DNA of 64,000 nt, taken from positions 6,833 through 70,832 of the IMG/VR virus record IMGVR_UViG_3300005663_000044. One strand, 5' to 3'. Source of the stretch: a virus. The notes below the pieces were generated by a model, which saw only the letters and a list, made by a program, of their open reading frames with translations, was not told where the DNA came from and did no database searches. This document shows, piece by piece, positions 4,267 to 12,496 of the stretch. The translations under genes and the position numbers were made by a program. Position 1 is the stretch's first letter. Each line of letters opens with the position of its first letter.

Positions 4267-4620
4267 CTACTTGACGCCGAAGGCAGTCAGAATGTGCTCT
4301 CGTTCGAGTTCTCTGACGGCCTTATGGTATGTCTCTTTTCCTATCTGGCGGTTTCTGCAGCGGAGGTATAGAACCTTCCACTCCTCATCGAACCGCTCGA
4401 TTGTTCCAGTAACGCTCCCTATAAACCAGTCCAAATCGAGCTTGGCCCGTTGTGCCTTTATCACATTGGCCCGCGTCACTTCGGCCCCATTGGGGAAGAC
4501 CCGAGTGAATTGCTCAACCTCCTCTTCGCAAGCCTTCTTGTTCCTTAGGTATTGAGCAGTGATTTTCTTTGGTAGTCGCATGTGCTTCTCCTTTCTAGGC
4601 TGCACCTCAATGCACCCCAA
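4267..4620 (-). CDS. hypothetical phage protein
   Basis: 'ITAQYLRNKKACEEEVEQFTRVFPNG' resembles a common phage N-terminal motif. The likely start is MRLPKK. Confidence 0.55.
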   Translation of the reverse strand: MGCIEVQPRKEKHMRLPKKITAQYLRNKKACEEEVEQFTRVFPNGAEVTRANVIKAQRAKLDLDWFIGSVTGTIERFDEEWKVLYLRCRNRQIGKETYHKAVRELEREHILTAFGVK

Positions 4621-4640
4621 TGGTACTGTTTTTGTAGTTT

Positions 4641-4961
4641 TTATTCCTCCATTAGAAACGATTCAAGGAAGGCGTCCAAGTGCCATTCCTGTACACAGGC
4701 CCACACTGGCGCCCACGACCCGCCCTTGTAGAGCATCCCTTCTGGTAGGGTGATGGCGTCGTCCCATCCCCACTCTCCTTGAGTCTCAATGATGTGCTTG
4801 GCTATCGGTAATACCTCATTGGGGAGGGGTGGGTAATGGTTGGTCTGCAAGTGGTAGGAGAGAGCGCGGTCTAGTGAGACGCTGCCATCCGCTACCGCTT
4901 CAGCCATGCCTACTGCTTGTGTGTTACCCATTGTCGGATTCCTCCCGTACCTTCCGCGCAT
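4641..4961 (-). CDS. hypothetical phage protein
   Basis: 'ALSYHLQTNHYPP...ITLPEG...HLDAFL' pattern. The likely start is MGNTQAV. Confidence 0.6.
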   Translation of the reverse strand: MRGRYGRNPTMGNTQAVGMAEAVADGSVSLDRALSYHLQTNHYPPLPNEVLPIAKHIIETQGEWGWDDAITLPEGMLYKGGSWAPVWACVQEWHLDAFLESFLMEE

Positions 4962-9269: not shown

Positions 9270-9304
9270 GGTAGATACTCCTTTCGTTGTCTGTCAGATG
9301 ATGA

Positions 9305-9562
9305 TTACGGTAGCAGATGGCCGTTCTTACCGTAGGCGTAGGCAACGAATTTGTAATCGCGCTCGCCTTCCGGTAAGAATTCGATCCCTGTAACGAACCC
9401 TGTTACGGTACGGCCCGACACCTTGACGCTACCAGGCAGCGAGAAGAAGGTATCAGGCTCTTGTGTTATCTTCACGTAGCGCCTACGGCCATCTGAGCAT
9501 AGGGCGTTCTGGCAAGCCGTGGCAATCAGCCACGGGCCGAAGCGAACTATTGTTGCTTGCAT
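9305..9562 (-). CDS. conserved phage hypothetical protein
   Basis: 'DGRRRYVKITQEPDTFFSLPGSVKVSGRTVTGFVT'; strong RBS. Confidence 0.65.
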   Translation of the reverse strand: MQATIVRFGPWLIATACQNALCSDGRRRYVKITQEPDTFFSLPGSVKVSGRTVTGFVTGIEFLPEGERDYKFVAYAYGKNGHLLP

Positions 9563-9593
9563 GAATTTGTGCCCCTTTCCTTTGTTCTCTACC

Positions 9594-9633
9594 CTCTACT
9601 AGTAGTATCGACCCTTTGCCAAAAGTCGGAACC
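9594..9633 (-). promoter_or_regulatory. bipartite repeated promoter-like motif, copy 2
   Basis: GGTTC-N15-GGTCGATACTACTAGTAGAG, same as 5881-5920. Confidence 0.6.
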
Positions 9634-9664
9634 CCCCAACTGCATGTACAGTTGGGGGGTTCCG
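9621..9664 (-). terminator. 16-bp hairpin, probable intrinsic terminator
   Basis: CGGAACCCCCCAACTG-TACATG-CAGTTGGGGGGTTCCG followed by ACTTTT on the minus strand. Confidence 0.6.
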
Positions 9665-9822
9665 CGTGACGGAGCGACTATCGGCCCTCTAGCTATCTTC
9701 AGGTTAGCACACCCTCAACGTCTTATCAAGGGTACGCCGTGCTTAGTACCGAAAACCTGAAGGGGTAGGCGTTAGCTATTCACTTCCCTCTACTGATACT
9801 AACGTTGTGGATGGGCTGGATG

Positions 9823-10311
9823 TTACACGTTCGGTAGAACGCTATCCGGTATCGGCCCTGTTACTAGGGTATTCTCGGGCTCGCCTGCGCCGGTATTCCG
9901 GCGGGCTGGCGCCATAACCCTCATTGGCAGGGTTTCGCCCCCATCGTGGCTGAAGGGGTGCGAGAGATACCGAGAGCCGTTAGGGCGCTTAGTGGTGCCG
10001 CCCCGTAGTACAACTGTTTTCAGGTTCCCGCGTGTACAACGGGCCGTGTACAGCTCACCGTCAACACCCGTGTCTTTAATATCATCGACTAGGCGACGGG
10101 TCTGTACAACTGGCTCGACCCTTACGCGGTGGTGGCGGCGTTGTAGGAGCCTATCGCCCCATGTGTTAGGCTTCCGTGCCGCGCCGCCCGTATCGTTGCC
10201 TACGGGCCGCTGGCCGGTAGTGGGCGGGCAATCGGTGACAACGCGCGGGTGAATTGGTGGTAGCCCATTGATAGAGCCTTGTGTGAGGGTTCGCATCTTA
10301 GCTCCCCTCAT
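9823..10311 (-). CDS. hypothetical basic protein
   Basis: ORF; the likely start is MRTLTQ after GGGGAG. Confidence 0.45.
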   Translation of the reverse strand: MRGAKMRTLTQGSINGLPPIHPRVVTDCPPTTGQRPVGNDTGGAARKPNTWGDRLLQRRHHRVRVEPVVQTRRLVDDIKDTGVDGELYTARCTRGNLKTVVLRGGTTKRPNGSRYLSHPFSHDGGETLPMRVMAPARRNTGAGEPENTLVTGPIPDSVLPNV

Positions 10312-10453
10312 CCTCTAATTCATTGACTTCTAACTCGGCAAAGTCAATGTATGGGCGCATCGGCGTAGCGTCGAGCGCCGTTTGGATAATGAGGAGAATA
10401 TCGGTCTCATCTGTCAACTCTGATTCGACCTCACAAGTGAATGTAAATCTCAT
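10298..10453 (-). CDS. 51-aa acidic protein
   Basis: Read manually: MRFTFTCEVESELTDETDILLIIQTALDATPMRPYIDFAELEVNELEDEGS, with TAAGGG RBS. Confidence 0.55.
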   Translation of the reverse strand: MRFTFTCEVESELTDETDILLIIQTALDATPMRPYIDFAELEVNELEDEGS

Positions 10454-10540
10454 TAGTTAAACCCTTACTACTGGCGTACCAGTAGAGGGGAGTGATTAGC
10501 TAACGTATGGAACGGGGAGAGCGGAGGGTTAGCTGCCCTG

Positions 10541-10702
10541 TTACTTGTTGACTCTCTCACCCTCATGCAATCTGCCGTAGCACCGGCAGTCCATTTTCTC
10601 CTGGTGCCCGCATCGAATGTAACGTCCGTCTTTAACCCATGCCTGACGCTCATAGTCGAATGTGGGGGTGTTGGCACTAGTTATGGCACCTGATATGTTC
10701 AT
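10541..10702 (-). CDS. 53-aa Cys/His phage protein
   Basis: Read manually: MNISG...FDYERQAWVKDGRYIRCGHQEKMDCRCYGRLHEGE, with AGGAG RBS. Confidence 0.65.
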   Translation of the reverse strand: MNISGAITSANTPTFDYERQAWVKDGRYIRCGHQEKMDCRCYGRLHEGERVNK

Positions 10703-10717
10703 AAGGTTAGCTCCTAT

Positions 10718-10906
10718 TTATATCATATCGGTAGGGCGGACTATCTCTGCTTTTATATAGTCCGAATCGTTTGTACAAGCTAGCGAGACGTTGTAGCCCT
10801 CCTTGCCATACTCTTTAGTCCTGCGGATTGCTACATCTAGCCCTAACTTATGAGCTTTTGCTAAGGCAGCCTCGCGGGCCTCATGCCGGGTTTTGTAACG
10901 TTGCAG
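10718..10906 (-). CDS. hypothetical protein, probable CTG start
   Basis: AGGAG-7nt-CTG at 10906 gives (M)QRYKTRHEAREAAL... The upstream in-frame starts lie inside the stem arms without an RBS. Confidence 0.55.
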   Translation of the reverse strand: MQRYKTRHEAREAALAKAHKLGLDVAIRRTKEYGKEGYNVSLACTNDSDYIKAEIVRPTDMI

Positions 10907-10957
10907 ATTCTTGCTCCTATCTGGCGAGTCTAACCCCCGCTCTCCCCGTTCCATGTT

Positions 10958-11365
10958 GGAGTCACACACAGAGCGGAAGGCTAGGCGCTCACCTACTTAA
11001 TTAGCTATCGAGATTGACTCGGACATTGAAACTGCCGATACTACCTTCACCAGTGTAGGCGTCCACCAGCTTGCCCGTCTTCCCATTGTAGGAGAACGGA
11101 AAGCAGGTAGTGCAGAACAGTTCTGCCTGATACATTGTCCCTGGGCGAGAGTTTGGGTGATAGCCACGTTCAAAAGGCCAGTCTTTGGCAGGCTTGCCGC
11201 ACTTGCCACAATCACTGTGCTCAATATCGCTGGTGCCCTGCACTAGTATCGTCTTTGGAAAGTCATCGCTATCGAATGGGGCTTTAATATGACCCTGTAG
11301 TGGTTCAGTCATGGGAGGTTAGCTCCAGTCTGGCGAGTCTAACCCCCCGTTCTGTGTGTGACTCC
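10958..11365 (-). repeat. long-range inverted repeat B (10958-10993 / 11332-11365)
   Basis: 27-nt arms with 23 Watson-Crick, 3 G.U and 1 A.C on the minus strand, plus a 6-bp extension CUCGCC/GGUGAG; encloses one ORF. Confidence 0.9.
11001..11312 (-). CDS. Zn-finger-like hypothetical protein (first early gene)
   Basis: CGKCG and FCTTC motifs; GGAG RBS lies inside a hairpin. Confidence 0.6.
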   Translation of the reverse strand: MTEPLQGHIKAPFDSDDFPKTILVQGTSDIEHSDCGKCGKPAKDWPFERGYHPNSRPGTMYQAELFCTTCFPFSYNGKTGKLVDAYTGEGSIGSFNVRVNLDS

Positions 11366-11532
11366 GTATTCATTTTTCCGATGGCCTCGACTCAAGCTGA
11401 ATGGGGTTCTCGGCCAAGTGACCGGCTGGCCCCTCTGAATCTCCGGCTATTCGACCGGCCAAGATGCCGGTGCTTATTCTCCTCGGCAATTTCACGTCCC
11501 TGTGGCCGTATTGCCTCGCTATCAGTGTCGGT

Positions 11533-11561
11533 ATCATCTCACACATCTGAAGGGCTGTCAA
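11533..11561 (-). promoter_or_regulatory. sigma70-type early promoter
   Basis: CCCTTGACA-N17-GATGAT on the minus strand, pointing into the early block. Confidence 0.65.
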
Positions 11562-11604
11562 GGGGGTAGAGGGCATTTATTCGTCTACCCTAACCTATGC
11601 CCCA

Positions 11605-11797
11605 GAAACCTATAGTGAGGCACAATGGGTTGTGAGTCACAATAGGTTTCCCTGTAAATGGGTTGTGAGGCACAGGGGTTATTCAGACTAATGTATAGTG
11701 AGTCACCTTAGGTTAATCTTTTCATAAGGTGACTCACTATACATATTCGTGGTAATGTGTAGTGAGGCACAACCCATTGTGACTCACAACGGGTTTC
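11605..11797. repeat. array of 7 GTGAG(G/T)CAC pseudo-palindromes with a central perfect 20-bp inverted repeat
   Basis: Copies start at 11615, 11632, 11665, 11698, 11729, 11762 and 11779 (11729 and 11779 in reverse orientation, GTGACTCAC). Inverted repeat 11691-11710 / 11725-11744. Confidence 0.9.
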
Positions 11798-12259
11798 CTG
11801 CTCCCCCTCACGCCCATCACCCGCACCGGCCCGCCGGTCATGCGCCCCAGATGCACGGCCCGAACCTCGACGGCTCTCTGTAATCCCATCACGTATCGTA
11901 GTCTACTAACGTAGCTTAAGCATAGTGGTATCTACGTAGCTACGATGGTAGTAGTTATGTCATCTGCTATCGAGGTGTACGATTGTAGCTAGCATCCTGC
12001 TAGCTTAGTAGATGAGAATGTCTCGGCGTCGTGCCTCGCTAGTCTCGTTGGGGTGCGGGTACAGTATAGGATGGGATAGGATAGGACGGTGACGTTGGAT
12101 TATGGTGGTGTGGATGTGATAGTTAGACGTTACACTCAGTACGGGCAAAAATTAAGAAAATAGAGAGAAAAGCGGCCGTAGACAGACTCTGCGACCGCTT
12201 TAGGTGCCACAGGTGGACACAAGTGCCGCCTAATAAAGGGATTTTACGCTCCGCGGGTC

Positions 12260-12496
12260 TTAATTAAAGGAATTAACCCTCACCTTTTTAGCGGGAAGCC
12301 GCCTTTCAGCGTCTAGGAACTTGAGAAGCTCCTTTACCTGCTTTTGGGACAGGAGAACCACCTCTATACTAGGTTCTGACTCCAGACGGGGTTCGGTGTG
12401 GGACTGCTCAAGGCGTAAATAGCCACCATTAAGCTCAAATCTGACGGGCCAGTGGTAGTTTCCCTCGGTTCCCTGGATATATTCACTCTGTTTCAT
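12260..12496 (-). CDS. hypothetical protein
   Basis: GGAGGAG RBS; overlaps the upstream stop (ATGA). Confidence 0.6.
   Translation of the reverse strand: MKQSEYIQGTEGNYHWPVRFELNGGYLRLEQSHTEPRLESEPSIEVVLLSQKQVKELLKFLDAERRLPAKKVRVNSFN

Follow-up and report, generated by a model that had tools for sequence, protein, structure and literature searches.

Candidate long-range RNA helices around exchangeable early genes in a marine-sediment phage and its relatives

The early transcription unit and its inverted repeats

We analysed 64,000 nucleotides of viral DNA (the window), bases 6833-70832 of the 70,832-bp virus record IMGVR_UViG_3300005663_000044, which was assembled from marine-sediment metagenomes and whose ends are direct terminal repeats. 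In its early region three inverted-repeat pairs, named B, A and C in the order of transcription, follow one another on the minus strand between 11365 and 9770, each enclosing one or two small open reading frames (ORFs). Between 1 and about 13,130 the genes are encoded on the minus strand; structural genes occupy the plus strand from about 14,166 onward. A terminase, a family-A DNA polymerase with a fused uracil-DNA glycosylase domain and a RecA-like protein can be recognised. No phage RNA polymerase family was matched in a scan of the ten largest ORFs, so that the host enzyme presumably makes the early transcript. The window had no match in a DNA similarity search against 50,697 phage records, and Rfam and tRNA scans across it gave zero matches.

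The three pairs lie between a predicted promoter and a likely terminator. The top promoter-like site within 9300-12300, at 11561-11533 on the minus strand, agrees with a sigma70-like early promoter at 10 of 12 positions: TTGACA, a 17-nt spacer and GATGAT, with TG ahead of the -10 element. At the other side, 9664-9627 holds a hairpin of 16 perfect base pairs with a brief T-rich tail behind it, probably an intrinsic terminator, which the terminator scan omitted because its T run holds four T only. With these two elements as borders, the three helices tile a single unit of about 1.9 kb. It opens with an untranslated leader of about 165 nt (11532-11366), rich in GGCC/CCGG hairpins and containing no ORF with a ribosome-binding site (RBS).

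A repeat search recovered all three adjacent pairs of the original prediction. Helix B joins 11365-11339 to 10984-10958 (27 nt, 85% complementary, 354 nt apart), helix A joins 10954-10934 to 10527-10507 (21 nt, 95%, 406 nt apart) and helix C joins 10505-10476 to 9799-9770 (30 nt, 90%, 676 nt apart). The gaps between them, 3 nt from B to A and 1 nt from A to C, are as predicted, and so are the longer arms proposed for A and B. Those of A (10954-10930 and 10532-10507) are reached via one bulged C that adds TTAG/CTAA to the 21 bp; in B, the fold of the cassette gives six extra pairs past an internal loop, out to about 11332 on the 5' side and about 10993 on the 3' side.

The outer half of the 5' arm of B, GGAGTCACACACAGA, is specific to its cassette, and the inner half holds a shared core, CGGGGGGTTAG. 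The 5' arm of A is followed by a linker, ACTCGCCAGA, common to B. The sequence that the two 5' arms were said to share is a direct repeat of 26 nt and 92% identity (10913-10938 and 11322-11347).

The three pairs are far beyond chance. A strict ungapped count of long-range inverted repeats that match at 17 or more bases gives six for the genome; 20 dinucleotide shuffles averaged 0.75, and none exceeded 2. A, B and C account for three of the six, and two more lie inside an operator-like array at 11605-11797. In the minimum-energy fold of the whole unit, 26 of the 27 proposed pairs of B, 18 of the 21 of A and 28 of the 30 of C are present. Folding of 9600-11000 returns A and C in minimum-energy and centroid structures alike, and cassette B folded alone (z = -4.83) has its helix in both.

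Each loop encloses one or two ORFs, as originally described. Cassette B carries a 103-aa ORF with CxxC pairs (11312-11001), which starts 27 nt past the arm behind GGAG. The first ORF of cassette A (10954-10718) has 78 aa if read from an ATG within the arm, or 62 aa from CTG 10906; this CTG lies 7 nt behind AGGAG, a geometry that agrees with the other cassettes. The second ORF of A (10702-10541, 53 aa) lies behind GGAGCTAACC. Cassette C (10453-9823) holds ORFs of 51 aa (10453-10298) and 157 aa (10296-9823). Pfam and PHROG scans found no family for the cassette ORFs. A search of 5.8 billion proteins at near lengths returned the 103-aa ORF itself only, and viral contigs searched with this ORF, or with a phosphatase encoded upstream of the unit (see below), gave no relatives. 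A segment VDGELYT.RCTRGNL, read by eye, is common to the 157-aa ORF and an ORF of the related phage G001 that is not bracketed by arms.

A diverged second copy of the C 3' arm lies at 9604-9586, after the terminator hairpin and ahead of the next gene; as a direct repeat it reads 9585-9610 against 9779-9804 (77%), and in inverted orientation it matches 10477-10495 (84%). Read-through transcripts could pair the 5' arm of C with this copy.

Arms and cargo in related phages

Because the cassette ORFs are orphans, relatives were reached via the terminase, which gave nine viral contigs at 63-76% identity and 23 metagenome loci. Their early DNA cannot be aligned to the window, save for operator-like GTGAGNCAC sites. 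The layout nevertheless recurs, with other arm sequences, in five related phages: G001, G002, G003, G006 and the metagenome relative L142; L125 was left out of this count as the same phage as G002. In the most elaborate case, G002, six helices of 26-31 bp stand back to back, 1-9 nt apart and with 232-506 nt in their loops, and an outer helix of 23 bp spans 1,860 nt and encloses four of the six. All seven are recovered when the 2.9-kb early unit of G002 is folded to minimum energy. In G003 three helices follow one another with 0-nt gaps, and G001 has one. In L142 a single 29-bp helix with a 228-nt loop stands behind the same promoter box as in the window, CCCTTGAC(A/G)GCCCTTCAG, which also precedes the early unit of G002. 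The helix of G006, about 29 bp with bulges and a 364-nt loop, has a duplex energy of -56 kcal/mol, where the second-best partner within 3 kb reaches -34; it rests on a targeted scan, two-segment chaining having missed it yet recovered the local hairpin of G004 and G007 described below.

Outside the early regions such helices are scarce: 44.5 kb of non-early DNA of G001-G003 gave two weak matches only. The background was gauged on both strands of 73 unrelated viral loci (686,554 bases), all of them apparently chance matches of a 14-nt core search: they held 47 helices of comparable score, 23 of these from two AT-rich loci, and none were back-to-back, as judged by eye. Other routes to relatives yielded little. 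Searching with the 5' module returned G001 and G003 only; 12 matches of a promoter-box search were taken as chance, being without helices apart from G002; and a seeded duplex scan, with hundreds of loose matches at -38 kcal/mol, did not discriminate and was dropped.

The geometry of the cassettes is constant. In all 13 the start codon lies 18-32 nt past the 5' arm, behind a GGAG-type site (counting the CTG for A). Relative to the 3' arm, the last stop codon ends at -23 to +7 nt in 12 of the 13 and at -76 in one, and the next 5' arm follows the 3' arm after 0-9 nt.

The arms themselves form a family. Many share an inner core, GAGCGGG.GGTTAG on the 5' side (followed by ACTCGCCAGA-type linkers) and CTAACC.CCGCTC on the 3' side. 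Their outer halves vary among orthologous and paralogous arms (GGAGTCACACACAGA, ATGGAACGGGGAGA, TGAGGCACGTGGGGA, GTGACACTGGGGGA), each with a matching partner; for the orthologous first helix alone they read GGAGTCACACACAGA, TGAGGCACGTGGGGA, GTGACACTGGGGGA and GGGACACAGAGA, again with a complementary partner for each. Helices measure 21-31 bp, or more with bulges, and their duplex energies range from -43 to -59 kcal/mol. For 14 of 15 5' arms the best partner is the cognate 3' arm; the exception, G003_1, pairs best with that of its orthologue G001_1. Inside any one genome, cognate duplexes are more stable than non-cognate ones. As the stems had been found by complementarity, this result mainly says that the arms do not cross-pair. 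Since neighbouring arms share the core, a 3' arm and the 5' arm of the next cassette can also make a local hairpin.

Cargo is exchanged between conserved flanks. G001 and G003 align at about 95% over leader, 5' arm, linker and RBS; the similarity ends at the start codon and returns about 10 nt ahead of the stop codon, to continue through the 3' arm. The ORFs between these flanks are unrelated. Covarying arms around different cargo, set beforehand as a test, are therefore found in relatives. In addition, the first ORF of G003 cassette 2 has an unbracketed homologue in G001 (shared ELFGTDT.PTPY), so arms and cargo assort independently.

The same arms also occur empty. In G004 and G007 orthologous arms, with the same core and leader, pair locally over 23-25 bp, and the 76-nt loop of this hairpin is structured and free of ORFs (z = -4.6 and -4.9). 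Depending on the phage, the orthologous first helix thus encloses 76, 228, 234, 264, 354 or 1,860 nt, and the gene-bracketing and local forms are two states of one element. We read it, on sequence comparison, as one element whose loop may accept, lose and exchange genes; its empty form may be either the ancestral state or the result of a deletion.

A further relative is visible in run X4 (2019 sediment, from another study), where short contigs are about 90-95% like window 10129-10532. Position 10485 is changed there from G to A, giving a G.U pair in helix C of the sense RNA. One contig, of depth 2, leaves the window exactly at 10532, the inner edge of the A 3' arm, and its letters past this point resemble those adjoining the B 3' arm.

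RNA pairing, proposed cutting by RNase III and the alternatives

The original prediction favoured folding of the messenger RNA over DNA recombination sites, on the ground that most non-Watson-Crick positions of B and C are G.U on the minus strand. This is roughly right: B has three G.U and one A.C, and C has one G.U, one A.C and one other, with a single G.U in A (by the strand-symmetric stem definition). Over the stems, strand-symmetric definitions give 31 G.U against 12 A.C on the sense strand, or 24 against 11 after dropping one orthologue and four positions shared by two paralogues (one-sided p = 0.02). Differences between related arms point the same way. Cassettes 1 and 3 of G002 are two double changes apart, with pairing kept; between G001 and G003 the 5' arm is identical, and all three differences in the 3' arm swap Watson-Crick and wobble pairs. 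By duplex energy, 10 of 15 stems are more stable on the sense strand, three are less stable and two tie; this comparison was set aside for the strand-symmetric counts because the arms had been delimited by a sense-strand score that tolerates G.U.

At the DNA level, resolvase/invertase and tyrosine recombinase families (PF00239 and PF00589) had no match in the 70.8-kb genome, in scans that matched control genomes. DNA contigs of runs X1-X3 cover 9300-11781 collinearly with no strand-changing joint; rare forms may be lost from such contigs, and the record itself may derive from these runs. Inspection revealed no target-site duplications or flanking direct repeats, the arms being only 0-9 nt apart, and each pair has its own outer sequence, not one recurring end. 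With covarying arms, the G.U lean, collinear contigs and no resolvase or integrase match, the preference for RNA holds, and the pairs are best read as RNA helices, apparently under selection on the sense strand.

What such helices would do is a further step. We propose that the host polymerase transcribes an early message of about 1.9 kb from 11561-11533, which would end at the hairpin 9664-9627. Each helix would then close a loop that is a complete translation unit, with RBS, one or two small ORFs and stop, the cassette-specific outer half directing each arm to its own partner. Host RNase III would cut both strands of each helix and so free every cassette as its own message with base-paired, protected ends, much as 16S and 23S rRNA are released. 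In about half of the cassettes, closure of the long helix would in addition free an RBS otherwise paired with the 5' arm. In the DNA, the arm-linker-RBS and 3'-arm modules would serve as a fixed frame for swaps of cargo between phages.

By analogy with rRNA processing, the likeliest function of the helices is as double-stranded substrates for host RNase III that give cassette messages with paired ends, a reading to which we give about even odds. RNase III is favoured here because near-perfect helices of two to three turns enclose units in series, as they do around 16S and 23S rRNA; their lengths and duplex energies also suit a nuclease specific for double strands. Two distant segments of the transcript make a predicted helix of about two turns or more; this helix encloses the unit to be released, with its RBS, one or two ORFs and stop; and compensating changes in relatives keep the pairing. 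We infer that the helices fold in the cell, that RNase III cuts them and that cutting has the effect just outlined.

Several points weigh against this proposal. The G.U excess is modest once shared ancestry is removed, suggestive and not decisive, and the perfect helices of G002 (26 and 29 bp) could be young and uninformative on selection. In G003 the minimum-energy fold joins the 5' arm of cassette 1 to the 3' arm of cassette 2 and adds a local hairpin; the cognate topology costs 2-5 kcal/mol more in G003 and 8 kcal/mol more in G001, and, as gaps of 2-8 kcal/mol fall within prediction error, either topology may apply in these two phages. Gene-enclosing chains are absent from the fetched parts of G004, G005 and G007 and from the fragments G008 and G009, so the layout is not required by every member of the clade. 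A search of the phage for RNase III or a double-stranded-RNA-binding domain gave no match. Finally, phage T7 grows without RNase III processing, so cutting, if it takes place at all, may matter little.

Among the alternatives, the one that survives best keeps the RNA helices and leaves them uncut, as clamps or switches that tie the ends of a unit together, hold a stop codon beside an RBS for re-initiation, insulate neighbouring units or free an RBS. The covariation and the G.U evidence fit it equally, and start and stop codons lie near the base of the helix in 12-13 of 13 cassettes. It also bears on a claim of the original prediction, namely that each 5' arm has a second partner over an RBS, with the gene translated only after its 3' arm has been transcribed; in C, for instance, a CTACTGG segment of the 5' arm can pair locally with CCAGTAG over the RBS of gene 10453. 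Each 5' module was folded alone and the pairing of positions -15 to +3 around the start was measured, with the arm blocked, or its letters shuffled 100 times, as controls. In 7 of the 13 cassettes the arm pairs with the initiation region more than shuffled arms do, at shuffle fractions of at most 0.09 (B 0.01; C 0.02; G003_3 0.05; G002_2 and G002_5 0.06; G003_2 0.08; G002_4 0.09); A, G001_1, G002_1, G002_3, G002_6 and G003_1 show no such excess (0.48-0.86). With the arm blocked, predicted pairing around the start falls from 0.82 to 0.51 in B and from 0.73 to 0.44 in C, and it likewise falls in G002_2, G002_4 and G002_5.

The alternative RBS pairings are thus borne out for B and C and fail for A's own first start. 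The 8-bp match GGGGUUAG/CUAACCUU ahead of gene 10702 is present in the sequence as a candidate pairing. From these folds, a switch that waits for the 3' arm is a real option for B and C and is consistent with the seven cassettes above. It is not a rule of the family, nor a general account of the helices, because 6 of 13 cassettes are without arm-RBS pairing beyond shuffles. In a cell with RNase III, moreover, nearly unbroken helices of 21-31 bp would be difficult to protect from cutting. Altogether we regard uncut clamps or switches as rather unlikely.

The long-range complementarity could also be a by-product of events in DNA, with genes having entered, or recombined in, a local hairpin whose halves now pair without function. 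Much of the exchange record suits this history: the same arms as an ORF-free hairpin with a 76-nt loop in G004 and G007, orthologous first helices around widely different lengths (76 to 1,860 nt), unrelated cargo in the conserved flanks of G001 and G003, the break of the X4 relative from the window at the inner edge of the A 3' arm (in one short contig), and two perfect G002 helices that fit a recent origin. Neutral remnants would be expected to decay, yet arms that differ from cassette to cassette and from phage to phage still match their partners in the cassette-specific outer halves; differences among close relatives keep the pairing through wobble pairs, and mismatches lean to sense-strand G.U; and the spacing to start and stop codons is constant. 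Such a history is moreover compatible with a present function of the RNA. A functionless pairing seems to us distinctly unlikely.

That the pairs serve as recombination sites for an invertible segment of DNA (inverton or shufflon), or are terminal repeats of small mobile elements, which inverted repeats of 21-31 bp flanking 200-700 bp do resemble, is highly improbable against the missing recombinase matches, the collinear X1-X3 contigs (rare forms aside), pair-specific sequences in place of one shared site, an inversion that would point genes away from the promoter where no convincing antisense ORFs exist, and the lack of target-site duplications by inspection, for which 0-3 nt between elements leave no room.

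If RNase III cutting and cargo exchange are taken together, a general design for early genes can be sketched. A processing hairpin would act as a landing pad; genes would enter or be exchanged in its loop, and its halves would become a long-range helix. Each new gene would then be excised automatically as a message with protected ends, its stop codon held beside the RBS, and the flanks would serve as a recombination frame, so that RNA processing, translation control and horizontal gene flow are coupled. We put this forward tentatively, as a possibility that we somewhat doubt. Early genes of phages comprise the fastest-evolving genes for host takeover and anti-defence, and how they are acquired and expressed is poorly understood. 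If the design were true, one host-made transcript would yield separately stable and separately translated messages, and a foreign gene could drop into a ready-made expression frame; the logic of rRNA processing would extend to messenger RNAs, and the arms would be natural, mutually orthogonal insulator parts for synthetic operons. The idea is directly testable, as the same arms exist empty, with one gene, with different genes or with nested cassettes.

Neighbouring elements and known systems

Other elements surround the cassettes. Just upstream of the operator-like array, a minus-strand gene at 12936-12493 encodes a dual-specificity protein phosphatase (PF00782, E = 1e-11) and sits among genes transcribed toward the early unit. 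Near-palindromic GTGAGNCAC arrays occur in the window at 11605-11797 and at bases 4520-4650 of the genome, about 14 kb apart. The two clusters bound the minus-strand early region, a two-cluster layout also found in G001, G003 and G004, with a spacing of about 10-14 kb per genome. A contig of run X2 holds an extra 17-nt unit in the array, so the number of sites varies. We considered these arrays as T7-like promoters and set the idea aside: the sites are palindromic and operator-like, and the ten largest ORFs scanned hold no phage RNA polymerase family.

A fourth long-range pairing joins 3184-3154 to 2833-2803 on the minus strand (31 positions, 25 Watson-Crick, 4 G.U and no A.C; -43 kcal/mol in sense against -37 on the other strand) and bears a GGTGGTTAG motif. 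It lies within coding sequence, with its 5' arm inside an 80-aa ORF and its 3' arm corresponding to codons 3-12 of a 71-aa ORF that starts at 2839. It may regulate this start and is not of the cassette type. On the early strand of G001 and G003 there are local hairpins with arms of 30-32 nt and loops of 43-45 nt (L021 12750-12647 and 11576-11470; L023 5362-5468), whose energies in sense and antisense are -54 vs -35, -52 vs -37 and -45 vs -28 kcal/mol, respectively. From their predicted folds, they look like local processing sites.

The leaders contain two further recurrent elements. The first, CCCCTTCAG followed after about 17-20 nt by (G/T)CGATACTGAAGCTAGGAAGG, stands ahead of several early genes of G004 and in the leaders of G001, G003 and L142 (L024 2690-3880, L021 15400-15330, L023 1300-1350, L142 800-740). 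Its CCGATA resembles a sigma28-type -10, and CTTCAG and CTGAAG are mutually complementary. The second is a GGCC...GGCC hairpin followed by CACCTTCACAA (ACCTTGTAAACAA in L142), 13-25 nt ahead of the first 5' arm (L021 about 15150-15120, L023 about 1365-1390, L142 about 745-720), with a weaker copy in G004. In an alignment of leaders, neither the window nor G002 shows a clear box of this kind. We take the box to be only loosely like the E. coli boxA, and the order of hairpin and box to be loosely like boxB-boxA of rrn leaders.

The original prediction knew of no description of gene-enclosing helices in phage messages, and our full-text literature searches, judged by listings and the starts of abstracts, likewise found no published account. 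Pairing between 5' and 3' untranslated regions is familiar from bacteria, where in icaR of Staphylococcus aureus and hbs of Bacillus subtilis it affects ribosome binding, RNase III cutting or stability. These are single cellular genes with short pairings, not helices of 21-31 bp tiled across an operon.

The early transcript of T7 carries five RNase III sites. According to PMC6582327 and PMC8708148, RNase III cuts a stem in a T7 pre-mRNA as well as the large stems that flank rRNAs, and the latter text describes T7 processing as maturing and protecting the messages. The T7 early sites, such as R1.1, resemble the present helices as double-stranded RNA elements among early genes of a transcript made by the host polymerase, and cutting in T7 leaves separate, protected messages (PMC8708148). 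They are local intergenic hairpins, in contrast to the halves in the window, which lie 354-676 nt apart and enclose genes. The original prediction had drawn this same contrast. It stands for the window, where the two halves of a stem are never found together between two genes, and has to be softened for the family, as G004 and G007, and these alone, carry the local form, and the shared arm core can fold locally.

In T4-type phages, PeSL cassettes (promoter-early stem-loops) provide modular shuffling of small early ORFs (PMC2839356, PMC4122927). There, too, small early genes, most of them orphans, stand between short conserved regulatory modules, and content is swapped among close relatives. 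PeSLs are direct repeats of a promoter and a terminator hairpin, in contrast to the complementary, promoter-free and cassette-specific flanks found here; the sense-strand promoter-like sites listed in the region all lie outside the arm intervals.

The closest likeness is to the leader-trailer helices of 16S and 23S rRNA in rrn operons, in which, according to PMC6582327, complements hundreds to thousands of nucleotides apart enclose a unit and helices stand in series. Contrary to these, the phage helices enclose protein-coding cassettes with their own RBS in an early operon, their cutting is only predicted, and their arms are a diversifying family with a shared core whose cargo is exchanged among relatives. 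To such known systems the present phages add an orthologous series that leads from an empty hairpin to a nested cassette array, an arm design in which a shared core is joined to a specific outer half and a local alternative fold, and the exact breakpoints of cargo exchange.

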